From assembly GCA_022340305.1 (NCBI GenBank), contig JAJDOF010000069.1, forward strand, positions 26,277-90,276: DNA of 64,000 bases. The letters run 5' to 3'. The translations under genes were made by a program, and so were the position numbers. Shown here one piece after another: positions 22,272 through 63,046 of the stretch. Position 1 is the stretch's first letter. Every line of letters starts with the position of its first letter. The notes under the pieces are model-generated. The model made no database searches, was not told where the DNA came from, and saw only the letters and a program-made list of their open reading frames with translations. The DNA is from Gammaproteobacteria bacterium. Its GTDB lineage: Bacteria; Pseudomonadota; Gammaproteobacteria; GCA-001735895.

Positions 22272-25001
22272 GTGCTGTCGCGCCTTTACAGCTTCAAGAT
22301 CATCATCGGCGCTGCGCTGCTGTGGCTGGGTATGCTGGCCTACGGACTCGCAATCTACAGCACCCAGGTCTATCGTGATCACGCCATCCAGGTTCAGCTC
22401 GAAACCTTGCAGGTCCAGCTTGAACAGGAAAGCAATGAAGCCATTCAGGAGCTCTATGACAGGGTGAAGCTGTTTGCGCTGAGGCTACAGACGGAGACCC
22501 CTTTCGCGCAGGCTCTCGCCAGTCGCGACCAGGCCGCGATGGAAGCCTGGCTTGCGAAGAGCTATACGCGCTACCAGATGTCGCGAGAGCTTTTCAAGCT
22601 GGAGGCGATCGTCGTACGCGATTTGGCAGGTGATATATTTGCACAAAGCTCGGCCGATGGTATCAACAGCTATGCTGGCTGCGCCGTAGTGCTGGATTCC
22701 CTGGGTGGAACGCTGATTCGATTGCTAAAGCCGAGATATGCCCTGTGCACCTTTGATAATCGTCTGTTTGCCGAAGTACTGGTCCCGGTGGGGACCCTCG
22801 AACCTCGGGCTTATCTGCATATTATCGCTGATGCTGGTGACGGGATCAGGCGTATTGAGTCAAAAATCGGCATGCCGGTTCGGGTGGCGCACGGCTCAGG
22901 CGAAATCCTCTATCGATCAGAGCATTGGGGTGATGCCGATAATGAGTCTTATTTGTATCCGAGCTTCAAGCTCTACGGTGACGATGCCTTCATCGGTGCT
23001 ATCGTCTCCGCCGCCTTCGACCAACGACCACTCATTGAGCGGCTGCAGCGGACCAAAACCGGATTCCTGATGATCACCACCCTGGCGACGATTATCGCTC
23101 TGGTGCTGGTATTGTCCATGTTGCATCGCGCCCTTCAGCCGATGAATAAACTACGCAATTCGGTGGGCGCACTTCTGACCGGGAAATATGCTCCGATCAG
23201 TGAAGATAAACTCCCCAGTGAATTGCGCGACCTGGTGATAGCCTACAACCAGATGGTCGAAGGCCTGGAAATCGAGACCATCAGTCGACACAACATCGAG
23301 GAGCGTTTGCGCGCGGAAAAGGATTTCATTTCGACCACGCTGGATTCGATCAGCAACCCGGTTATCGTCATCGATTCAATGGACCGCATCAAGCTCGTCA
23401 ACCCGGGAGGCGAAATATTGTTTGGCGACAAGCAGGAAGCGCTACTCGGCTCCTCCATTCATGAATTTTTAATTCTCTACTCGAATCGCCAGGCTACGCG
23501 CATCGTCGATATCAAGCAGCTTCTCACGCACAAACTGTCGATGTCCTCGATGTATTTTTATGATGCCAATCATAAGCTTATCGAACTCGAATTTTCGGCT
23601 TCGCCGATGATCGATGTAGTGGCCGAGGACATCGGCTTTGTCATTATCCTGAAAGATGTGTCCGAAGATCGCAAGCTGCGTCGCAAACTGAGCTACGAGG
23701 GTAGTCACGATCAACTCACCGGATTCCTGAATCGTGCCGCGTTTGAGCAGAAGTTCGACAATCTGGTGACTGAGGATAATGGAGCGCTGCCGCAGCACGT
23801 GTTGGCCTACCTTGATATCGATCAGTTTCGCACTGTTAACGAAACCTGTGGCAGCGCTGCCGGCGATCTGCTGCTGAAGCAGATCAGTTCGATCATCAAG
23901 AAACAGATGCGCCAGGCGGACGTGTTATCGCGCCTGAGCGGTGACGAGTTTGGCTTCATCATGCCTTTCTTCGAGATGGACCGAGCCCTGCAGACCATAC
24001 AGAAAATTATCATCGAGATTCAGCATTCGACTTTTGTGTGGAATGCCCAGGAATATCGAGTGACTGTCAGCATCGGTGTGATGGCCTTCGGGCGCATGAG
24101 TGATGAATATGCCGACCACTATTCCAAGGTGACTACGGCCTGTTTCCTGGCCAAGCAAAATGGTGGTAATCAATACCACTATATTGATGAGAACGACGAA
24201 AAAGTCCTGGCCCAGCAAGTGTCCATGGAGTGGGTGTCCGGTATTATGGAAGGTTTTACCAATGATCGATTTTGCCTCTACGTACAACCCATCGTAGGTA
24301 TCGACCATGCCGACAAGCATGACCATTACGAAGTGCTGATCCGCTATCGCGATCAAGATGGTAACATCATCGCGCCTGGTCAATTTCTACCCTCCGCTGA
24401 GCGCTACAACCTGATCGAGCGAATCGACTGCTGGGTCGTCAGCACGATCATTGAATGGTTTCAGAAAAATCCCACGATGGACCAGAAGGTCATGTTCTCG
24501 ATCAATCTTTCGGGGCGCAGCATCAGTTCGCAAACCTTCCATAGCTTTTTGCGCGAGACGCTCATCGCCAGCAATGTCGACATGCGCGCGCTGTGTTTTG
24601 AAATTACTGAAACCGCGGTTGTCGATAATGTCGAACGTTCGGTCGAGTTCATCAATTCGATCAAGCAACTGGGCGTGCGCTTTTCGCTCGATGATTTTGG
24701 CACCGGACTCTCTTCATTCAGTTATCTCAAGCAGTTTCCGGTCGATTATCTGAAGATCGATGGCGAGTTTGTGCGCGACATTACCAAAGACGACAAGAGC
24801 TTTGTCTTCGTGCGCTCGATGACTGAAGTCGGGCATTGCCTGGACATGGAGGTGATCGCCGAGTTCGTCGAATCAGATACCATGTTCGACAAGTTGCGCG
24901 AGGCCAACGTGGATTTCGCACAGGGTTATACGGTTGGCAGACCGGTACCGATCGATACGCTGCTTGAGGTTGACCGGGCAAAACACAAGCAGACTGGCTA
25001 G
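22272..25001 (+). CDS. Membrane sensor diguanylate cyclase/phosphodiesterase (periplasmic sensor-HAMP-PAS-GGDEF-EAL)
   Basis: Two TM helices flank a periplasmic domain of about 250 aa. A PAS domain is followed by GGDEF as RLSGDEFG, an SGDEF variant with no RxxD I-site. An EAL domain follows (EVLIRY…, DDFGTG). Confidence 0.85.
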   Translation: MLSRLYSFKIIIGAALLWLGMLAYGLAIYSTQVYRDHAIQVQLETLQVQLEQESNEAIQELYDRVKLFALRLQTETPFAQALASRDQAAMEAWLAKSYTRYQMSRELFKLEAIVVRDLAGDIFAQSSADGINSYAGCAVVLDSLGGTLIRLLKPRYALCTFDNRLFAEVLVPVGTLEPRAYLHIIADAGDGIRRIESKIGMPVRVAHGSGEILYRSEHWGDADNESYLYPSFKLYGDDAFIGAIVSAAFDQRPLIERLQRTKTGFLMITTLATIIALVLVLSMLHRALQPMNKLRNSVGALLTGKYAPISEDKLPSELRDLVIAYNQMVEGLEIETISRHNIEERLRAEKDFISTTLDSISNPVIVIDSMDRIKLVNPGGEILFGDKQEALLGSSIHEFLILYSNRQATRIVDIKQLLTHKLSMSSMYFYDANHKLIELEFSASPMIDVVAEDIGFVIILKDVSEDRKLRRKLSYEGSHDQLTGFLNRAAFEQKFDNLVTEDNGALPQHVLAYLDIDQFRTVNETCGSAAGDLLLKQISSIIKKQMRQADVLSRLSGDEFGFIMPFFEMDRALQTIQKIIIEIQHSTFVWNAQEYRVTVSIGVMAFGRMSDEYADHYSKVTTACFLAKQNGGNQYHYIDENDEKVLAQQVSMEWVSGIMEGFTNDRFCLYVQPIVGIDHADKHDHYEVLIRYRDQDGNIIAPGQFLPSAERYNLIERIDCWVVSTIIEWFQKNPTMDQKVMFSINLSGRSISSQTFHSFLRETLIASNVDMRALCFEITETAVVDNVERSVEFINSIKQLGVRFSLDDFGTGLSSFSYLKQFPVDYLKIDGEFVRDITKDDKSFVFVRSMTEVGHCLDMEVIAEFVESDTMFDKLREANVDFAQGYTVGRPVPIDTLLEVDRAKHKQTG

Positions 25002-26002
25002 CTGTGCTCGCTCAGGCCTCGCTTCAATTCCCGGAAGCTGGGCACTTCGGCCTCTTCGATTAGGCTCTCACGACTCTGAGCCGTTTTCGATTCGGTGACC
25101 TTGCGTATGGTCTCCTGATCGAGGTAGGGCGCCATCATGTGCAGGAATTCGAACTGATAGGCTGACAGGTGTCGTGAATGGCGAAAGCCAATCTTGATGA
25201 CGCTGTTTGGAAACAGGTGGCTGGCATCGATATAACTGAGATCGGTATCCTCGTCCCGGCAGGCCATCTCGGCGATTATGCCGACGCCCATACCGAGGCG
25301 AACATAGGTTTTAATCACATCGGAATCGGTCGCGGTAAAAGCGACCTTCGGCTGCAGGTGGGCCTGCAGGAAAGCCTTGTCGAGTTGTGAGCGACCCGTC
25401 AATCCCAGCATGTAGGTCAGGATGGGGTACTCGGTCAGCAGCGGCAAGGTCACTTCCCCGGCGCGGGTCAGTTCGTGGTCATTCGGCACCACGATAAAGC
25501 GATTCCAGTGGTAGGCTGGAATGGTCACCAGTTCGCCGCGTTCGTCGATAACTTCCGAGGCGATCACAAAATCGACCTGGTTGTTGGCGGCCAACTTGCA
25601 CATCGACTTGGGATTTCCCTGGTGCACACGTAATTCGATATGTGGATAGCGCTGTGAAAAACGTTGCAGGATCGACGGTAGAATGAACTGTGCCTGGGTA
25701 TGTGTCGTGGCGATAGTCAGGCTGCCACGATGGTGATTGCTGAAATCGCGCGCCGCCTGTTTGATGTTTTTGACGTTATTGAGCAAATCGGTTACATGCT
25801 CGAGGATGGCATTTCCAGCCGGCGATATCGCGGTCAGTTTTTTACCCGAGCGTTCGAAAATCTGGATGTCGAGCTCGTCTTCCAGTAACTTTATCTGGTG
25901 ACTGATTCCCGGTTGCGAGGTATAGAGCTCTTCAGCCGCCGCAGAAACGTTCAGGTTATTGCGCACGACCGCATCGAGAAAGCGTAGTTGTTGAAGTTTC
26001 AC
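24998..26002 (-). CDS. cysB: LysR-family regulator, CysB/Cbl-like
   Basis: MKLQQLRFLDAVVRNNLNVSAAAEELYTSQPGISHQIKLLEDELDIQIFERSGKKL is near-identical in pattern to the CysB N-terminus. 334 aa. Confidence 0.8.
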   Translation of the reverse strand: MKLQQLRFLDAVVRNNLNVSAAAEELYTSQPGISHQIKLLEDELDIQIFERSGKKLTAISPAGNAILEHVTDLLNNVKNIKQAARDFSNHHRGSLTIATTHTQAQFILPSILQRFSQRYPHIELRVHQGNPKSMCKLAANNQVDFVIASEVIDERGELVTIPAYHWNRFIVVPNDHELTRAGEVTLPLLTEYPILTYMLGLTGRSQLDKAFLQAHLQPKVAFTATDSDVIKTYVRLGMGVGIIAEMACRDEDTDLSYIDASHLFPNSVIKIGFRHSRHLSAYQFEFLHMMAPYLDQETIRKVTESKTAQSRESLIEEAEVPSFRELKRGLSEHS

Positions 26003-26090: not shown

Positions 26091-26804
26091 TTATGACTTG
26101 GGTTTGAATTCAATCGATTTTACCCGCGGCGACAGATTGATCTCGTCGATGACGATATCGGGGCTCGATTGCAGTACCTGAAACACCAACTCGGCAATAT
26201 CGTCGGTGGAGATCGCGTTTTCGGGCGCGGCGCCCGGGGCGAATGTCTGCCCGTCGAAAAACGGGCTACGCACCATGCCCGGGTTTACCAGGCTGACCTG
26301 AATGCCATCGCTGGCACAATCCTCGCGCAGCGCAAGACAGAAGCCGCGCAGGCCAAACTTGGCAGCACAGTAGAGGGCACCCTTCCTGCCCGCCTGTAAT
26401 GCGGATTCGGAACCAATGACAACGATGCGGCCCTGTCTGTGACGGCGCATATGCGGCAACAGGCTACGGCAGATCACCATGGCGCAGAGCAGATTGACGC
26501 GAATAGCCGCCTCGATTTGCGCCACCGAAAATTGTTCTATCGAGCCGAAGTTTCCCTGCCCAGCGGCGTGGATAAAGCAGTCGAATCGCGTTTGTTTGAG
26601 GATGCTGCCGAGGCGCTTCTCAAGTTCGCCGAGATCATCCAGATCGATGATCTGCGCGTGGAAATTATCGTGTTGCAAGGCGTCGACCTGGCCACGTCGG
26701 CTGATGCCGGTAACCGCATAGCCCTGCTCCAGCAAGCGACGTGAAATGGCCAGCCCGATGCCGGAACTGGCACCGGTCACCAGGGCATGCCTGCATTCAT
26801 CCAT
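26091..26804 (-). CDS. Short-chain dehydrogenase/reductase (SDR)
   Basis: TGASSGIGLA Rossmann motif, 237 aa. Last gene of a four-gene overlapping operon. Confidence 0.8.
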   Translation of the reverse strand: MDECRHALVTGASSGIGLAISRRLLEQGYAVTGISRRGQVDALQHDNFHAQIIDLDDLGELEKRLGSILKQTRFDCFIHAAGQGNFGSIEQFSVAQIEAAIRVNLLCAMVICRSLLPHMRRHRQGRIVVIGSESALQAGRKGALYCAAKFGLRGFCLALREDCASDGIQVSLVNPGMVRSPFFDGQTFAPGAAPENAISTDDIAELVFQVLQSSPDIVIDEINLSPRVKSIEFKPKS

Positions 26805-27797
26805 GCCAGTTACAGGGGTGATAGCAATGCCTGGGGACGTGTTGCAACACCGCGGTTTCGCAGAATTCGATCATTTCGCGCTCACGTTCGACTGGATAGC
26901 TGACGATACCATTATCCAGCTCCATGGGTTGCGCAAACAGGGGTTCGTCCGGATATAGTCGCGAAACCTTGCGAAAATGATCACGCGTCAGGCGAAAGCT
27001 ACCCAGGCTGACCGAGTGCATGGCTGTGGCATCGAGCTCGGCAAAAATCTGTTCCAGCAACGCCTTGAACTCTACCTGGTAATTCACGTGATAAACGATC
27101 GGGTCGAGGCGCAGTCCGACCTTCCAGCCAGCCTCCATGAGTCGGCGCATGGCGTCGATGCGTTTGGCTATCGACGGCACGCCGTTTTCCAGTTGGGCAT
27201 GGCTCACAGGATCGCTGAAACTGAAAGCAGTGACCACTCGATCCTGTGGTTTCAGTTTCAACATGCCGCGCACCTGGGTACTCTTGGTGCGCAATTCCAT
27301 CCAGGCATTATCGATGCTGGCCACCAGGGGGATGAAAAACTCGGTAAACCGGGTCATCGGATCGTTGGCGAGACTGTCGCAATCGTAGCCCGAGTAAAAC
27401 CATACCGGTTGTTGCGGATGACTGGCGGCAACCCGCCGCATCTCGTCACCGAAATCCTCGAAATTGACAAACAGCAGTTGGTGGGCCGACTGGTACATGC
27501 CCTGCAGAAAACAGTAGCGGCAATCGTACAGGCAATTGAGCATGTGTGAGAAATAGTAGTTGTGATCTCCACCGAGGCCATAACCCTCTGGGGCCGCCAG
27601 CATATGGCCCTTATTCTTGTGCGCGATAATGATCGCGGGATTCTTTTTCTGCAGGCGAAAATTTTGTGATCGCGGGTTGAACACTTCGCCGTAGTGCTCG
27701 ATTTCAATCACCGGTAACTTGTTCAATCTTTGCAGTAACTGCCGCGTACGCGGATGTTGGCGTATCGACGATTCGACATAGACCCGGCTTGTCATGG
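26797..27797 (-). CDS. Radical-SAM enzyme of the spore-photoproduct-lyase (SPL) / 'DNA repair photolyase' family
   Basis: CLYDCRYC matches the CxxxCxxC radical-SAM motif. Start moved to ATG 27797 (MTSRVYVES…). The track's 27924 start would overlap the upstream gene by 132 nt. Confidence 0.65.
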
Positions 27798-28604
27798 TCG
27801 AAGTCCTTCGCTGTCCCGGTAGCTCAGTTGCTCCAGGTGTTTGATTATTGCGCGTGGCGAATGCTCTTCGAATTGTTGCATCAGGGTTACGGCGTCGAAA
27901 TCGCGATTCATCAGGTAACGCCACAATACTCGCAGTCGGTTTTGCTGGGTTTGACTGAAATGCGCCATGGACGTCAGTTGTTGCCAGTATTCGAGCCCTG
28001 GTGAGCGCGCCGCGACTTCGTCGTTCAAAGCCATCAGGGAGCTTGCCTGACGTTCGATACTGTCGATGTGCTGGTGTACCAGGTCACTGACGCGTTGCCG
28101 GTCCCTGCCGATTTTTTCGCGCTGGTTGTCGCTTACAATTTTCAGCGACTTGACTAGCTCGGCACTGCTGAAGCGCAGGGTGGCGTACATGAAACCACTG
28201 GCTTCCATATCGAACAGGTATTCCTCGCTGTAGTCATCGCTGGGAAGGCTTAGTGTCATGCAGGCGCTGCCATCCAGTTCAACTGCGCTTGCCGGTGCCG
28301 GGTAGTAGCGATGCCCATCGTCGGCATCGATCACCTGGTGAAGTGAAAATATGCTGCCGATATCATGCTGCGCTGCGCCTGCTATACCCAGGTTGATCCA
28401 GGCGATCGATGCCTCGTCGCCGTAGCGTGCCGCTATCCAGGCACAGGCTGCGCTACTGGCGATCTTGCCGGTACCGCTGATGATACAGGCCATACCGTTG
28501 CCACGATAATGGTCGAAGGCGGTGTCATCATGTGATTTCTTGAGGCGATAAAAGTCGATAATCGGCTTGGCTTCGCAGTGCAGGGCGGATACCCAGATCA
28601 GCAT
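27792..28604 (-). CDS. PNP/UDP/MTA-nucleosidase-family (phosphorylase family 1) protein with a C-terminal extension of about 110 aa
   Basis: The N-terminal about 160 aa align with MTA/SAH nucleosidase Pfs (ISGTGKIASSAACAWIAARYG…INLGIAGAA). 270 aa. Confidence 0.6.
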   Translation of the reverse strand: MLIWVSALHCEAKPIIDFYRLKKSHDDTAFDHYRGNGMACIISGTGKIASSAACAWIAARYGDEASIAWINLGIAGAAQHDIGSIFSLHQVIDADDGHRYYPAPASAVELDGSACMTLSLPSDDYSEEYLFDMEASGFMYATLRFSSAELVKSLKIVSDNQREKIGRDRQRVSDLVHQHIDSIERQASSLMALNDEVAARSPGLEYWQQLTSMAHFSQTQQNRLRVLWRYLMNRDFDAVTLMQQFEEHSPRAIIKHLEQLSYRDSEGLRP

Positions 28605-29443
28605 GTGACCCGCCTGCTGTTATCCTGCCAGCGCCGGTACAGGGGTTCGAATTCGGCGATGAGCGAGTGATTCTGATGTTTGCGCGCACCCTTGATGAGT
28701 ATTTCGAGTTTACCCAGCAAGGTGCTGCGGGCGGCTGCAAAATGGTCTGCCTGCAGCGTCGTGGTGTCGAGCAGGCGATGCAAAGCACGTACGCGGAAAC
28801 GGTCCATCGCCGGGTATTGCCGAGACAACTGGTCCGCGTGTCCACCATACTTGGTGATCAGGGGGCGATCGATGTAATGCACGGGAAAGCGATGGCACAG
28901 GCGCAGCCACAGATCGTAGTCTTCGCAGGCGGGCAGGCTCTCGTCAAACAGGCCGAGACCCTGCAGGGCTGATTTCCTTATTACCGTGGCCGATGGTGAG
29001 ATCGCGCATAGCGGCAGGCATTGCACAAATATCCAGCCGCCGCTCTTACGATGTTTTTGCATCGGGTTGACCCGCACCCCGCGCCGGACCCAGATTTCGT
29101 CAGAGTGATAGAGGATGTATTCGGGATGCTCTGCAGCCGCTTCACGCACCGCCTGAATTTTGTCCGGCAGCCAGCAATCGTCTGAGTCAAGCAATGCGAT
29201 CCATTCGTGTTGAGCGGCCTCGATACCTTTATTGCGCGCGGCGCTGACCCCGCCATTGGGCTGATGAATCACCGAGACTTGAGGAAACTGGCGAGCCACC
29301 ATCGCGGCGCTGTCATCGGTGGAACCATCATCGACCAGGATGACTTCATCGACCGCCGAGCCCTGGGCGAACACTGACTGCAGCGCTCGCTGCAGGGTGT
29401 GCGCGCGATTGTAAGTCGGAATGACGACAGATATGCGCATCAT
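28598..29443 (-). CDS. Family-2 glycosyltransferase
   Basis: MMRISVVIPTYNRAHTLQRALQSVFAQ… DDGSTDDS… DSDD. GT-A fold with a DxD motif. Confidence 0.8.
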   Translation of the reverse strand: MMRISVVIPTYNRAHTLQRALQSVFAQGSAVDEVILVDDGSTDDSAAMVARQFPQVSVIHQPNGGVSAARNKGIEAAQHEWIALLDSDDCWLPDKIQAVREAAAEHPEYILYHSDEIWVRRGVRVNPMQKHRKSGGWIFVQCLPLCAISPSATVIRKSALQGLGLFDESLPACEDYDLWLRLCHRFPVHYIDRPLITKYGGHADQLSRQYPAMDRFRVRALHRLLDTTTLQADHFAAARSTLLGKLEILIKGARKHQNHSLIAEFEPLYRRWQDNSRRVTC

Positions 29444-29474
29444 AAACGGCCCTGGCGGCCCCGGGATTTATGCA

Positions 29475-29495
29475 ATATGCGGCTAGCCCGCATAT
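29475..29495. promoter_or_regulatory. Perfect 8-bp inverted repeat ATATGCGG-N5-CCGCATAT, 32-50 nt upstream of the GT2 operon start
   Basis: Seen directly in the sequence. No U-tract follows on either strand, so it is not an intrinsic terminator. The position fits an operator. Confidence 0.3.
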
Positions 29496-29663
29496 CTCAC
29501 CGAATTCCTGCTGTCGACGCCGCAAAGCGCGCCGTGACGGGCTGTACTCCCGACGGCCGGCTTGACGCAGTGTCGACTGCGCCCGGCGCCGCCCTCTGGT
29601 CCGTGCAACCCGCCACAGCGTCTTTACGACGCCCTCGCAACGTAGATCGGTGAGACATGAGGG

Positions 29664-29996
29664 CTAGGAAGTTGAATTGACACTGCCATGCCCGGGGAAA
29701 ACGGTGACGCTGGCGCCGTCGCTGTCCAGAATCCGATTTTTGCCACTGCTCTCGACCTCGTCGATACGTATCACTGCAAAATGGGGGATATAGGTGTGCT
29801 TGACGTTACCAAATTCGGTTTTCAGCTTTTCTTCGGCCGGATCGATCAGTAATTTGGAGTGTTCACCAAAGATGATCTCACCGATCTCGATAAAGCCCGA
29901 CATCTGCGACTGGCCAACCTGATGTGCATAGAGTTCGTATATCTTGTTGTTATTGTGGAACTGAATGCGAAAGGTAGATTTCGGGGCTTTGGCCAC
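29664..29996 (-). CDS. Conserved hypothetical protein (DUF1820-like)
   Basis: 110-aa ORF MAKAPKSTFRIQFHNNNKIYELYAHQV…, sharing its start/stop junction with the glutaredoxin gene. Confidence 0.5.
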   Translation of the reverse strand: MAKAPKSTFRIQFHNNNKIYELYAHQVGQSQMSGFIEIGEIIFGEHSKLLIDPAEEKLKTEFGNVKHTYIPHFAVIRIDEVESSGKNRILDSDGASVTVFPGHGSVNSTS

Positions 29997-30256
29997 TAGC
30001 TTGACTCCATCAATTCGTCGAGTTCGCCATCCATGTGCAGTTCGGTCAGTTCGCGAAAGCCGCCAATAACCTTGCCGTCGATAATGATCTGTGGAACCGT
30101 GCGTGCACCATTGGTCGCTGCGACGAATTGTTTCCTCGCCTCGTCATCGGTATCGATGAGGATTTCCTCAAACGGGATGTCCCATTGATTCAACTTGGCC
30201 TTCGCCATATTGCAGAATCCACAGTGGGCCGTGCTGTAAATGGTAACTCGTGACAT
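29996..30256 (-). CDS. grxC: Glutaredoxin 3
   Basis: MSRVTIYSTAHCGFCNMAK with the CGFC active site, 86 aa. Confidence 0.9.
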   Translation of the reverse strand: MSRVTIYSTAHCGFCNMAKAKLNQWDIPFEEILIDTDDEARKQFVAATNGARTVPQIIIDGKVIGGFRELTELHMDGELDELMESS

Positions 30257-60283: not shown

Positions 60284-61702
60284 CTAGTAGCGATAAGCCT
60301 CGGGCTTGTATGGGCCTTCGACCTTGACACCGATGTAGTCGGCCTGCTCCTGGCTGAGTTTGGTCAGCTTGGCGCCGATTTTCTCCAGGTGCAATCTGGC
60401 TACTTCTTCGTCGAGATGCTTCGGTAGCACGTAAACCTCGTTCTGATACTTGCCCGGGTTACAGAAAATTTCCATCTGTGCCAGCACCTGGTTGGTGAAC
60501 GAGTTTGACATGACAAAGCTCGGATGTCCTGTTCCGCAGCCAAGATTTACCAGTCGTCCCTCGGCGAGCAGGATGATGCGTCGGCCGTCTGGAAAGATGA
60601 TGTGATCGACCTGCGGCTTGATGTTTTCCCACTCGAAAGCCTTCATCTCGGCAACCTGGATTTCGTTGTCGAAGTGGCCGATGTTGCAGACGATAGACTG
60701 GTTCTTCATTTGCTCCATGTGATCCTTGCGGATAACGTTGAAGTTGCCGGTGGTGGTGACGAAGATGTCAGCCTGGCTGCAGACATCGTCCATGGTAACG
60801 ACGCGAAAACCTTCCATCGCCGCCTGCAAGGCACAGATGGGATCGATTTCGGTGACCATTACCGTGGCGCCGAGACCTTTCAGCGATTGCGCACAGCCTT
60901 TGCCGACATCGCCGTAACCGAGTACCACGGCAACCTTGCCGGCAATCATGACGTCGGTGGCGCGTTTGATGCCGTCGACCAGCGATTCGCGGCAGCCATA
61001 GAGGTTGTCGAACTTGGACTTGGTGACCGAGTCGTTGACGTTGAACGCGGGGAAGGGCAGTTCGCCTTTGGCCTGCATCTGCACCAGGCGATGCACGCCG
61101 GTGGTGGTTTCTTCGGTCACGCCCTTGATGTTCTTCTGGATCGTGGAGTAGAAGTTGGGTGATTCGGCAAGTTTGGCCCTGATCGCGGCGAACGCGATGG
61201 TTTCTTCCTCGGTACCCGGATTATCGAGCACTGAAATATCGGTTTCAGCCTTGGTTCCCAGGTTGACAAGCATGGTGGCATCACCACCATCATCGAGAAT
61301 CATGTTGGGGGTGCCACCGTCGTGCCATTCCATGATGCGGTGGGTGTATTGCCAGTAATCCTCGAGCGATTCGCCCTTGATGGCGAATACCGGCACACCA
61401 GAATCGGCGATCGCTGCCGCGGCGTGATCCTGGGTGGAAAAGATGTTGCACGATGCCCAGCGTACTTCGGCCCCGAGTGCGACCAGGGTTTCGATCAACA
61501 CGGCGGTTTGAATGGTCATGTGCAGGGAACCGGCGATACGGGCGCCTTTCAGTGGTTGCTCGGCGGCATATTTGCCGCGCAGCGAGACCAGTCCGGGCAT
61601 TTCGGTTTCGGCGATAGCAATCTCTTTACGGCCCCAGGAAGCGAGGTCGAGATCGGCTACGATAAAGTCTTGTTTTACAACGTCTGCGGCGTTAGCACTC
61701 AT
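60284..61702 (-). CDS. ahcY: Adenosylhomocysteinase
   Basis: 472 aa. NAD-binding [10 protein letters not shown] and a conserved SAHH N-terminus. Confidence 0.95.
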
Positions 61703-61721
61703 AAATATTCTCCAAACTATT

Positions 61722-61790
61722 TATGAGCGCCGTTCGATAAATCAGTTGGGCGAGCCTGGCAGTAAAGCTGTCGCAGCGCTCCTCGCACAA
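61722..61790 (-). ncRNA. SAH (S-adenosylhomocysteine) riboswitch in the ahcY 5' leader
   Basis: The minus-strand RNA UGCGAGGAGCGCUGCGACAGCUUUACUGCCAGGCUCGCCCAACUGAUUUAUCGAACGGCGCUCAUAAA contains the conserved SAH-riboswitch blocks GAGGAGCGCUGC…CAGGCUCG…AACGGCGCUCA. It sits 20 nt before the ahcY ATG. Confidence 0.7.
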
Positions 61791-61814
61791 AAGCCCCGCA
61801 GTGGGGAACCGGGT

Positions 61815-61878
61815 ATTCTATTCAAAAATGCCCGGCTGTCAAACCGCAGGGGCACCCGTGATGGTTACCCGGTGCCCG
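61815..61878 (-). terminator. Probable metK terminator region (GC-rich hairpin GGGCACCCG…CGGGTGCCC plus U5 tract)
   Basis: The hairpin at 61850-61878 sits immediately after the metK stop. A U-tract follows at 61824-61828 on the minus-strand RNA. The geometry is not textbook. Confidence 0.35.
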
Positions 61879-61879
61879 G

Positions 61880-63046
61880 TTAGAGGCCGGCGGCGTCTTT
61901 GAGGGCTGCTGCCTTGTCGGTGCGCTCCCAGCTCAGATCCAGATCATCGCGGCCGAAATGGCCGTAAGCCGCGGTCGGCTGGTAGATGGGGCGCAACAGG
62001 TCGAGCATGGCGATCAAACCCTTGGGGCGCAGGTCAAAGTGCTCGCGAATCAGGGCGATGATGCGCTCGTCGTCGATATTGCCGGTACCGAAGGTGTCGA
62101 CGCTGATGGAAGTCGGCTCGGCCACACCGATGGCATAGGAGACCTGTACTTCGCAGCGACCGGCGATGCCGGCGGCGACGATGTTCTTGGCCACGTAGCG
62201 CGCTGCATAAGCCGCCGAGCGGTCAACCTTCGATGGGTCTTTACCGGAGAAAGCGCCGCCACCGTGTCGGGCCATACCGCCGTAAGTGTCGACAATGATC
62301 TTGCGGCCGGTTAAACCCGCATCACCGACCGGGCCACCGATGACGAAACGCCCGGTGGGGTTGACGTGAATGTTTTCATTCTTGCATTGCACCAGCCAAT
62401 CGGACGGTAACACCGGCTTCAGGATGGTTTCGATCACGGCTTCGCGCAGCGCTTTCAGGCCTATCGATTCCTTGTGTTGGGTCGACAGCACAACCGCTTC
62501 GATACCAACGGGCTGGTGGTTTTCGTATCGCAGGGTGACCTGGCTCTTGGCGTCGGGCAACAGCCAGTCGAGTTCACCGGACTTCATCAATTCGAATTGC
62601 TTGCGCACCAGCCGATGCGCATAGGTTATGGGCGCTGGCATCAATACATCGGTTTCGTTACAGGCATAACCAAACATCAGGCCCTGGTCGCCTGCGCCCT
62701 GTTCCTTGTCATCGCTTTCGTCGACGCCCATGGCGATATCGCCGGACTGCTTGCCGAGACCGGTGAGTACGGCACAGGTTGCGCCATCGAAGCCGCATTC
62801 CGGGTTGTCGTAGCCGATGTCGTTTACGGTTTTACGCACCAGCGCCTCGAAATCGACCTCGGCATTGGTGGTGATCTCGCCGGCAAGCAATACCATGCCG
62901 GTCTTGACCAGTGTTTCGCAGGCGACGCGGGAGCGGTGATCCTGGGTCAGCAGGGCATCCAGTACCGCATCGGAGATCTGGTCGGCCATTTTGTCCGGAT
63001 GACCGCCAGATACCGATTCCGATGTGAAGATATATGAGCCTTGCAT
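61880..63046 (-). CDS. metK: S-adenosylmethionine synthetase
   Basis: [21 protein letters not shown] and [16 protein letters not shown] motifs. Confidence 0.95.

Follow-up and report, generated by a model that had tools for sequence, protein, structure and literature searches.

ORF analysis of the window, as we call the whole 64,000-nucleotide stretch of gammaproteobacterial DNA analysed here, located four co-directional open reading frames on the minus strand at 26091-29443, in the order GT2-NUC-rSAM-SDR (Table 1). The families named in the first-pass annotation, a family-2 glycosyltransferase, a nucleosidase-like protein, a radical-SAM enzyme of the spore photoproduct lyase (SPL) family and a short-chain reductase, were confirmed by Pfam, fold and motifs. 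Its view of the genes as one translationally coupled unit was also correct: the four genes are a real operon, and the two nearest relatives, L170 and L171, have overlaps identical to those in the window. It had counted four junctions overlapping by 6-8 nt, whereas we found three. GT2/NUC (7 nt, 28604/28598) and rSAM/SDR (8 nt, 26804/26797) fall in that range, but NUC/rSAM is 4 nt (ATGA, 27795/27792), taking the ATG at 27795 as the rSAM start. Comparison with homologues supports this ATG, which overlaps the NUC stop, because nearly all of the 120 homologues listed (of 5028) are 332 aa long and the gene called in L170 agrees. The longest frame, which starts at GTG 27924, is 43 codons too long.

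Table 1. Genes and other features of the operon and its upstream region.
Feature	Position	Strand	Basis or remark
GT2, family-2 glycosyltransferase, 281 aa	28598..29443	-	PF00535; first of the four genes
NUC, MTAN-like nucleosidase, 270 aa	27792..28604	-	MTAN/futalosine-hydrolase fold and MTAN motifs
rSAM, radical-SAM enzyme with SPL fold, 332 aa	26797..27795	-	PF20903 and Foldseek
SDR, classical short-chain dehydrogenase/reductase, 237 aa	26091..26804	-	PF00106 and motifs
Palindrome ATATGCGG-N5-CCGCATAT	29475..29495		Inverted-repeat analysis
MITE-like insertion, 185 bp, 21-nt terminal inverted repeats	29483..29667		Inverted repeat
DUF1820	29996-29664	-	Pfam; directly upstream of the operon
Glutaredoxin	30256-29996	-	Pfam; directly upstream of the operon

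The perfect inverted repeat reported upstream of the operon is present, with 0.02 matches expected by chance in the window, but its suggested role as an operator did not hold. One arm is the tip of an inserted element and the other is the ancestral flank, and we rejected the palindrome as a conserved operator because it was formed at this lineage-specific junction and is confined to the window and the two relatives nearest to it. In L170 and L171 it is perfect and 22 bp long; it was not found in L172 or in the other relatives checked, L001-L021. The 185-bp insertion folds as a single long hairpin (-132 kcal/mol, z = -8.5), the window holds exactly two copies of its ends, and the DUF1820 gene takes its TAG stop codon from the insertion. 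In L172, whose NUC is 87% identical to that of the window, the site is empty. Relatives without the insertion have a gap of only ~25-45 nt between DUF1820 and GT2, and in relatives the glutaredoxin-DUF1820 pair is probably co-transcribed with the four genes. The pair lies downstream of SDR in L023, L034 and L035, as does glutaredoxin alone in L036 and L041. The sole promoter-like site upstream of the four genes on the minus strand is at 30368-30339.

Properties of the four proteins

All four proteins look soluble. GT2, predicted soluble in its own right, matched PF00535 at 119 bits (threshold 23.3) and carries a DxD motif, D86-S-D88, followed by D89. It reached no specific equivalog among the NCBIfam models; named GT2 equivalogs matched it only in part and far under cutoff (25.1 bits against 379 for HpnB, TIGR03469), and its closest matches among solved structures were GT-A enzymes of a generic kind. 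SDR matched PF00106 at 130 bits and has the motifs TGASSGIG (10-17), GSES (131-134) and YCAAK (145-149). The sequence ISRRG after strand 2 suggests that it is likely an NADPH user.

The rSAM protein matched the SPL family PF20903 at 1e-15. Its cluster motif, CLYDCRYC at residues 88-95, has the spacing C88-x3-C92-x2-C95, and the three cysteines are invariant. The AF2 model (pLDDT 88) aligned by Foldseek with the SPL structure 4fhc over its full length, with a TM score of 0.86 over ~340 columns at 17% identity, and keeps an SPL-like beta-hairpin at 292-299. The protein thus resembles SplB (TIGR04070; PDB 4FHC/4FHD) in overall fold, in the CX3CX2C motif and in the conserved Tyr that separates the second and third cysteines of the cluster. 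It differs in the scores against the curated models, 73.8 bits for TIGR04070 (equivalog cutoff 400) and 53.9 for the sister model TIGR03886 (cutoff 437.55), and in the residues of the H-relay. In a profile alignment to 4fhc, the H-donor Cys140 corresponds to Tyr137 and Tyr98 to Phe96 (SPL residues in G. thermodenitrificans numbering), and Cys139, which lies near the H-donor position, is replaced in the Firmicutes fusion members shown (VSYDTD). The modelled structure has the full SPL fold, but the protein is separated from SPL by both the curated scores and the H-relay residues.

Pfam, proposed earlier as a check on each protein, recognized GT2, rSAM and SDR and gave no match for the NUC of the window, PF01048 being missed; some NUC homologues do reach that family. 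The top 50 Foldseek matches of the AF2 model (pLDDT 76) were MTAN, futalosine hydrolase, PNP and AMP nucleosidase, with a best E of 4.6e-10. Weak NCBIfam matches to futalosine hydrolase and nucleosidase were all under cutoff, with 27.4 bits against 124.7 for the futalosine hydrolase MqnB (TIGR03664), limited to the N-terminal 116 residues, and 24.7 against 129 for PRK05634. The core (~residues 1-165) is a shortened PNP/MTAN, ~35 residues shorter than MTAN between the GxAG and DMEAS motifs. Its motif residues are E11, D132-M-E134 and S158-D159. A family profile aligned DMEAS with VEMEAT and KvvSD with RAISD of E. coli MTAN (E174, D197), while E11 is the counterpart of MTAN Glu12 by motif position only; E11, E134 and D159 are invariant across 28 relatives. 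Residues 169-266 form a conserved, helical C-terminal extension. The ~110 aa first ascribed to it hold when counted from the catalytic Asp159, but only ~75 aa of these lie beyond the end of MTAN. NUC shares with MTAN and MqnB the MTAN fold, the motifs of the catalytic Asp and of the Glu that binds ribose, and a radical-SAM partner, and differs from them in falling under every family cutoff, in its shorter core and in the extra helical region. With no Pfam match, a shorter core and futalosine hydrolase as its best weak match, NUC is far diverged from MTAN, and this would fit a substrate other than plain 5'-deoxyadenosine (5'-dAdo).

Linkage, fusion and distribution of the module

The NUC-rSAM-SDR core, at times fused, recurs in hundreds of bacteria, including marine sulfur oxidisers, methanotrophs, bacteria of marine sediments and human-gut Lachnospiraceae. 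Two motifs of the family were matched in at least 586 species-level genomes, and scores below 1e-30 were obtained for 460 clusters formed at 50% identity. All close relatives share the order GT2-NUC-rSAM-SDR, as do 25 of the 65 fully readable genome loci. Whether the four genes co-occur had been raised as a test; they do so throughout the close relatives (L001-L022) and in roughly a dozen Gammaproteobacteria that are less closely related, but GT2 lies outside the core. SDR is immediately downstream of rSAM in 69/73 loci of Gammaproteobacteria and 72/79 loci of Firmicutes, and the two are fused in L172 and in P0299. In L077 an aldo-keto reductase (AKR) takes the place of SDR. The swap for this non-homologous protein, from a typical aldose/aldehyde reductase family, fits a role in sugar-carbonyl reduction. 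Most Methylococcales loci have only rSAM-SDR within 10 kb, and cultured Methylomonas species carry this pair.

NUC accompanies rSAM in 34 of 77 gammaproteobacterial loci as compared with 80 of 82 Firmicutes loci, where the two are adjacent or fused. The Firmicutes form is mostly a single protein of ~640-690 aa in which the extra helical region of NUC (~75-100 aa) is the linker. Such fusions occur in many 50%-identity clusters and make up at least 93 Lachnospiraceae-type sequence clusters, and the catalytic residues are retained, so the proposed nucleosidase-rSAM partnership is stronger than was claimed. Lachnospiraceae normally already possess a housekeeping Pfs. Because the MTAN catalytic motifs are kept in 92 of 93 fusions (92-93 of 93 by residue), N-glycoside hydrolysis is, judging from these sequences, under selection even there. 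GT2 and NUC occur together in 32 of 72 evaluable gammaproteobacterial loci, and all 32 gammaproteobacterial loci with GT2 also have NUC. GT2 was present in none of the 66 Firmicutes loci and is missing from most Methylococcales loci. The unit that travels is rSAM with the nearly universal SDR, plus NUC; GT2 is an add-on, a clade-specific accessory limited to some Gammaproteobacteria. Among other neighbors, a sodium:solute symporter gene directly follows rSAM in L025, L056 and L071 (family checked for L025), and in L025 and L071 a DSP-type phosphatase gene separates GT2 from NUC.

These contexts bear on the names given to the family in RefSeq and JGI, "DNA photolyase", "spore photoproduct lyase" and "deoxyribodipyrimidine photo-lyase". 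A photoproduct-type lyase that works by itself on DNA or RNA, with unrelated or loosely related neighbors, would agree with those names, with the full-length SPL fold and its hairpin, and with an endonuclease III gene close by in five Methylococcales loci. We regard it as highly improbable. Besides the low curated scores and the replaced H-relay residues, the translational coupling and the fusions that join rSAM to nucleosidase and reductase partners in two phyla are unexpected for a DNA lyase and unlike SplB; the family is found in non-sporulating aerobes, among them Gammaproteobacteria, and the rSAM pI of 7.3 is not notably basic. The coupled NUC-rSAM-SDR is very probably a metabolic module rather than a DNA photoproduct lyase, and the core of the locus looks like a small-molecule pathway not described before. 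No published description of such a system was found in the literature, in line with the first-pass annotation, which had matched the combination to no described pathway.

Possible chemistry of the module

The closest likeness is to the hopanoid Hpn system, where radical-SAM, PNP/MTAN-fold nucleosidase, NAD(P)H reductase and GT2 classes are likewise gathered in one locus. In hopanoid clusters HpnH is the adenosylhopane synthase, HpnG the nucleosidase and HpnI a GT2, the reduction of ribosylhopane being a step assigned to no named enzyme, and HpnA (SDR-like) and HpnB (GT2) belong to the same clusters. The locus is nevertheless not a hopanoid one, as had been judged before: no operon protein matched HpnG or HpnH at E <= 0.01 in NCBIfam, no cyclase was seen among the annotated flanking genes adjoining the four, and rSAM has the SPL fold whereas HpnH is of the class-B/B12-domain type. 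The module is also found in Lachnospiraceae, which are not hopanoid producers. What the Hpn system offers is a full mechanistic template, in which adenosylation is followed by loss of adenine, reduction of the ribose and glycosylation. MqnE/MqnB are a second example of an adenosylating radical-SAM enzyme with a nucleosidase. HpnH and HpnG are a gene-clustered radical-SAM and PNP-family pair that works via C-adenosylation (PMC13459092).

By analogy, we tentatively favor, at less than even confidence, an HpnH/HpnG-like sequence of 5'-deoxyadenosyl transfer, adenine removal, carbonyl reduction and glycosylation. In this sequence rSAM would cleave SAM and put the 5'-deoxyadenosyl radical on an sp2 carbon of the substrate, giving a 5'-C-adenosylated intermediate as with HpnH and MqnE. 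NUC would hydrolyse the N-glycosidic bond of the intermediate and free adenine, as do HpnG and MqnB/MTAN. SDR, or the AKR in L077, would then reduce the freed ribosyl C1 aldehyde to a polyol chain, which GT2 would glycosylate. The parallel route runs from adenosylhopane through ribosylhopane and bacteriohopanetetrol to GlcNAc-BHT. In favor of the adenosylation sequence are the linkage, the overlaps and both kinds of fusion, the retained catalytic motifs of a NUC diverged from MTAN, the replacement of SDR by AKR, the two precedents, and the fact that every one of the four genes gets a role. Against it, we know of no SPL-family enzyme that adenosylates, the only characterised chemistry of that family being H-abstraction to our knowledge. 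Rather more guardedly, it is possible that the SPL fold hosts a new C-adenosylating radical-SAM family that, with a reductase and its own, often fused nucleosidase for freeing adenine, adds a C5 ribose-derived polyol to a metabolite, the product being glycosylated in this clade.

Other points against adenosylation come from the neighborhoods. The rSAM-SDR pair of Methylococcales would leave SDR without a substrate, although one is possible if HpnG or an MTAN/MTAP nucleosidase acts in trans. GT2 is missing from Firmicutes, and no neighborhood examined offered a candidate acceptor substrate. In addition, the organism of the window uses the SAH hydrolase route (metK, SAH riboswitch, ahcY) and may be without Pfs; therefore it might need a dedicated 5'-dAdo nucleosidase.

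By-product clearance is part of the main alternative, close to the reading of the first-pass annotation, in which rSAM would act by H-abstraction and turn a small substrate, through cleavage or dehydration, into a carbonyl or enone, SDR reduces this product, NUC docked or fused to rSAM clears the inhibitory 5'-deoxyadenosine formed as SAM is used stoichiometrically, and GT2 modifies the product in some Gammaproteobacteria. The parallel is AprD4/AprD3, a radical-SAM diol dehydratase and an SDR-type reductase in apramycin C3' deoxygenation, where an NADPH reductase likewise acts on a radical-made carbonyl. AprD4, however, does not have the SPL fold, and the apramycin system works without a nucleosidase and is part of a secondary-metabolite cluster of an actinomycete, not of an operon conserved on the chromosome. 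We consider this alternative plausible but somewhat unlikely. It would explain why rSAM-SDR is the most universal pair, at times alone or fused, and why NUC is dispensable or sited elsewhere in many genomes; the conserved fold, H-abstraction as the family chemistry, the retention of precisely those residues with which MTAN acts on adenine nucleosides and the use of AhcY rather than Pfs all agree with it. It accounts less well for intact catalytic residues in fusions of Lachnospiraceae that normally have Pfs, or for a strongly diverged NUC with a conserved extra domain, unneeded for plain 5'-dAdo hydrolysis. The constant company of NUC with GT2 would be odd for a housekeeping helper, although adjacent genes could be gained or lost jointly. 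We know of no other radical-SAM family that has a scavenger of its own, either as a dedicated partner or as a fused domain.

In our estimate it is improbable that the module salvages or breaks down a modified adenine nucleoside. Here NUC would act first, freeing the base or the sugar of a nucleoside that was taken up or came from turnover, rSAM would cleave the substituent and SDR would reduce the fragment. QueK and QueL, reportedly a queuosine hydrolase and a radical-SAM queuine lyase, act in a similar order and would be the precedent, but membership of QueL in the SPL family is conjecture and no queuosine-salvage NCBIfam model matched the operon proteins. The symporter and the phosphatase hint at precursor uptake and dephosphorylation but are found in just 2-3 closely related loci. 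A nucleoside- or dinucleotide-sized substrate would fit the modelled fold and hairpin, whereas a biosynthetic GT2 is out of place in a salvage route.

The gene context and the fusions argue against the photolyase and SPL names carried by thousands of family entries. The module may point to a metabolite or glycoconjugate not yet known, and the NUC-rSAM fusions found in nature offer a convenient single chain for biochemical work. Under both proposals the SPL fold would gain new enzymology, as an adenosylating radical-SAM enzyme or as the first one with a built-in 5'-deoxyadenosine scavenger. If the adenosylation proposal is true, the module would add a third, independent adenosylation pathway to those of hopanoids and futalosine, with a product never described, at work in human-gut Lachnospiraceae, methanotrophs and relatives of marine sulfur-oxidising symbionts.

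Gene layout and the region upstream

Four co-directional open reading frames occupy 26091-29443 on the minus strand and encode a family-2 glycosyltransferase (GT2), an MTAN-like nucleosidase (NUC), a radical-SAM enzyme (rSAM) and a short-chain dehydrogenase/reductase (SDR). The longest mechanical ORF of rSAM begins at GTG 27924. Because almost every one of the 120 best homologues has 332 aa and the gene call in the nearest relatives begins at the equivalent of ATG 27795, the gene was taken as the shorter frame listed in the table. The first-pass annotation had described overlaps of 6-8 nt at four junctions, which was near but inexact, since three junctions were counted with overlaps of 7 nt, 4 nt (ATGA) and 8 nt. 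These overlaps, together with gene fusions in two phyla, show that the four proteins are tightly coupled. Hydropathy analysis revealed no obvious membrane segment in any of the four proteins. Horizontal transfer, judged by composition, was rejected, as the GC content of the operon (54-58%) resembles that of the surrounding genes.

Coordinates of the four genes and of associated features (window positions unless a locus is named)
Feature	Position	Strand	Description
GT2	29443-28598	minus	281 aa; PF00535, 119 bits; DxD motif at 86-88
NUC	28604-27792	minus	270 aa; MTAN-type nucleosidase
rSAM	27795-26797	minus	Pfam SPL family PF20903, 1e-15; CLYDCRYC at residues 88-95
SDR	26804-26091	minus	237 aa; classical SDR; TGASSGIG and YCAAK
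MITE-like element	29483-29667		185 bp extra in the window; 21-nt terminal inverted repeats
Glutaredoxin and DUF1820 pair	29664-30256		precedes the operon in the clade of the window
metK, SAH riboswitch, ahcY	60284-63046		riboswitch 61718-61790, minus, 54 bits, above gathering score
L025 accessory genes (phosphatase, symporter)	L025 8701-9183 and 11004-12443		

A palindrome, ATATGCGG-N5-CCGCATAT, lies at 29475-29495 and is not expected by chance. It had been proposed as the operator of the operon, a role that does not fit its distribution, as it is restricted to the window and the two closest relatives and was created by an insertion. In most relatives only about 25-45 nt lie between the end of DUF1820 and GT2, and the palindrome is absent. 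The inserted MITE-like element folds as a single long hairpin (-132 kcal/mol, z = -8.5) and sits exactly at the DUF1820 stop codon, giving a new TAG stop; no second copy was found in the window. The insertion is present in the related loci L170 and L171, where NUC is 96% identical, and alignment with the window identifies a third locus, L172, as an empty site. Since the tip of the inserted element makes up one palindrome arm and pre-existing flank, found as CTCCATAT in L172, makes up the other, the palindrome is the junction of the insertion and no conserved operator.

No riboswitch or leader was found upstream of the operon, Rfam at the gathering threshold returning only the SAH riboswitch 32 kb away. 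The sole promoter-like match on the operon strand upstream of the four genes precedes the glutaredoxin gene, and in the relatives grx-DUF1820-GT2-NUC-rSAM-SDR appears to be one transcription unit. The grx-DUF1820 pair lies directly downstream of SDR at three other loci (L023, L034 and L035), as does glutaredoxin alone at two (L036 and L041). This link may be functional, for example in supplying a thiol reductant for rSAM, or may be plain synteny. At the other end of the operon, a CysB-like LysR regulator gene (24998-26002, on the SDR strand, with a promoter-like site at 26060-26033) lies 88 nt downstream of SDR, a synteny that holds in roughly half of the close relatives; the gene for a 909-aa GGDEF-EAL protein (22272-25001) converges on it.

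The radical-SAM enzyme and the nucleosidase

The structural model of rSAM (pLDDT 88) superposes over its whole length on spore photoproduct lyase (SPL), with a TM score of 0.86 at 17% identity; the second-best fold, PFL-activating enzyme, is far weaker (E 1e-5). The protein has the SPL fold, yet it is no canonical SPL, scoring 73.8 bits for TIGR04070, where the cutoff is 400, and 53.9 for TIGR03886, where it is 437. In the profile alignment to 4FHC, a Tyr stands opposite the H-donor Cys140 and a Phe takes the place of Tyr98. The Cys139 of rSAM, near the H-donor position, is not retained in Firmicutes fusion members. True nucleic-acid repair is a very improbable role. Members of the family are named "DNA photolyase", "SPL family radical SAM protein" and even "deoxyribodipyrimidine photo-lyase" in RefSeq/JGI. 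For the 90%-identity cluster of L028, a locus of Methylomonas spp., the RefSeq and UniRef names conflict, comprising all three of these and 'hypothetical protein', and the photolyase names on this cluster are probably annotation errors.

NUC had no match in Pfam, and its NCBIfam matches were weak and sub-threshold (futalosine hydrolase, 27.4 bits with a cutoff of 124.7; "nucleosidase", 24.7 with a cutoff of 129). An AlphaFold model built from 28 homologues reached moderate confidence (pLDDT 76), and its best PDB matches were MTA/SAH nucleosidases and futalosine hydrolase, with E values down to 5e-10. For the motif comparison we used a sequence which we take to be that of E. coli MTAN. With hhalign, the NUC alignment matched it over only 44 columns at 35% probability, and the profile had to be widened to take in the Firmicutes domains. 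The resulting family profile pairs D-M-E-A-S of NUC with VEMEAT (Glu174), K-x-x-S-D with RAISD (Asp197), SGTGK with SGIGK and NLGIAG with NTGSAG. Residues E11, D132-M-E134 and S158-D159 are invariant in 28 relatives, and E11, D132, E134 and D159 are retained in 92-93 of 93 NUC-rSAM fusions, which shows selection on the catalytic residues. From the GxAG motif to the DMEAS motif, the core is some 35 residues shorter than in MTAN. The catalytic Asp is followed by helices 169-266, which contain a conserved FSQTQxxRLRVLWRYL motif; across the homologues and in the model, what had been noted as an unassigned extension is thus a conserved extra domain. The original reading of NUC as PNP/MTA-nucleosidase-like agrees with both the structural matches and the motif alignment, and NUC belongs with the MTAN-type nucleosidases, to which it adds the conserved domain. 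Salvage of a modified nucleoside with NUC acting first, for which QueK/QueL would be the analogue, is unlikely.

Linkage and fusion of the genes

Gene linkage in Gammaproteobacteria was scanned in one genome per GTDB species, which gave at least 586 loci with two family motifs, the best 80 of which were examined. By tblastn, and counting only loci with enough flank, SDR lies directly 3' of rSAM at 69 of 73 loci and NUC directly 5' of it at 34 of 77; these and the other fractions given from the scans are not unbiased, as the best 80 of each scan favor close relatives. GT2 was found at 32 of 72 loci and was accompanied by NUC in every case (32/32); the complete set was present at 25 of 65. The order GT2-NUC-rSAM-SDR is preserved in all close relatives (L001-L022, uncultured Gammaproteobacteria, among them the Olavius algarvensis Gamma-3 symbiont) and at about a dozen more distant loci. 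In Methylococcales (Methylomonas, Methylobacter, Methyloprofundus and others) only rSAM-SDR occurs within 10 kb, the sole exception being L070, with a full-length NUC 2 kb off. At L077 the SDR is swapped for an aldo-keto reductase (AKR; L077 5996-6973), which shows that the reductase step is kept even through non-homologous replacement. A sodium:solute symporter follows rSAM at L025, L056 and L071, where a different SDR is divergently transcribed, and a DSP-type phosphatase lies between GT2 and NUC at L025 and L071.

A HMMER search over 1.8 billion cluster representatives found 2344 relatives, 460 of them below 1e-30. Many matches are 600-690 aa long, with the rSAM domain C-terminal and a NUC domain with the same motifs as the N-terminal half; a query with one such fusion retrieved more than 90 others, mainly from Lachnospiraceae. 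The protein P0299 is an rSAM-SDR fusion. At L172 (4810-6444), where NUC is 87% identical to that of the window, rSAM and SDR share one ORF of 544 aa in which neither Pfam domain is disrupted. This may be a natural fusion, or an assembly error of one base may have joined the two frames at their 8-nt overlap. Among 89 Firmicutes loci, NUC is fused or adjacent at 80 of 82, SDR is next at 72 of 79 and GT2 is present at none of 66. The four genes travel together in the close relatives; over the whole sample, NUC, rSAM and SDR are the conserved functional unit and GT2 is a clade-specific addition. All-against-all clustering of neighbour ORFs from the 80 and 89 loci found no further recurrent enzyme and gave synteny alone (proC, yggT, cysB-like LysR, grx and DUF1820, and in one gut lineage a CobW-like GTPase). 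On two Lachnospiraceae contigs (L086 and L087) a SIR2-family gene comes after the NUC-rSAM fusion and SDR, joined at L087 by a CinA-domain gene, both families relating to NAD metabolism; a tRNA/rRNA U5-methyltransferase gene is divergently transcribed.

A possible reaction sequence

No description of the GT2-NUC-rSAM-SDR set was found in full-text searches of the literature, in line with the first impression that it is not any described pathway. The locus falls outside SPL, MTAN, MqnB and the Hpn system in membership tests, and its predicted action is a hybrid of them. HMM scores and the class of the rSAM led us to reject membership of the hopanoid system; the first-pass annotation, too, had set the operon apart from HpnG/H/I.

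We infer that NUC acts on an adenosyl-bearing product of the rSAM reaction. Tentatively, we favor an adenosylation sequence in which the 5'-deoxyadenosyl radical of rSAM would add to a substrate, NUC would remove adenine, SDR or AKR would reduce the ribose C1, and GT2 would glycosylate the product. Adenosylation is favored because known gene-clustered pairs of an rSAM and a PNP-family enzyme, HpnH/HpnG and MqnE/MqnB, are adenosylation systems, the latter also resembling this scheme; because plain 5'-deoxyadenosine hydrolysis would not require an enzyme as diverged and elaborated as NUC; and because Lachnospiraceae retain the NUC-rSAM fusion though they normally possess Pfs. Step for step, the sequence corresponds to HpnH/HpnG/(unassigned reduction)/HpnI of hopanoid biosynthesis, where the clustered HpnH/HpnG pair carries out adenosylation (PMC13459092).

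Hydrogen abstraction is an alternative of nearly the same probability, in which rSAM would be a lyase or dehydratase working with a ketoreductase and NUC would only clear 5'-deoxyadenosine. It is the known chemistry of SPL, and rSAM-SDR is a nearly universal pair that Methylococcales carry on its own. AprD4/AprD3 offers a template for it. The metK, SAH riboswitch and ahcY genes indicate that the window organism recycles SAH via SAH hydrolase, so that Pfs/MTAN may be absent, which also speaks for a clearing role of NUC. The module itself, a radical-SAM enzyme with a dedicated nucleosidase, is widespread and mis-annotated in databases.
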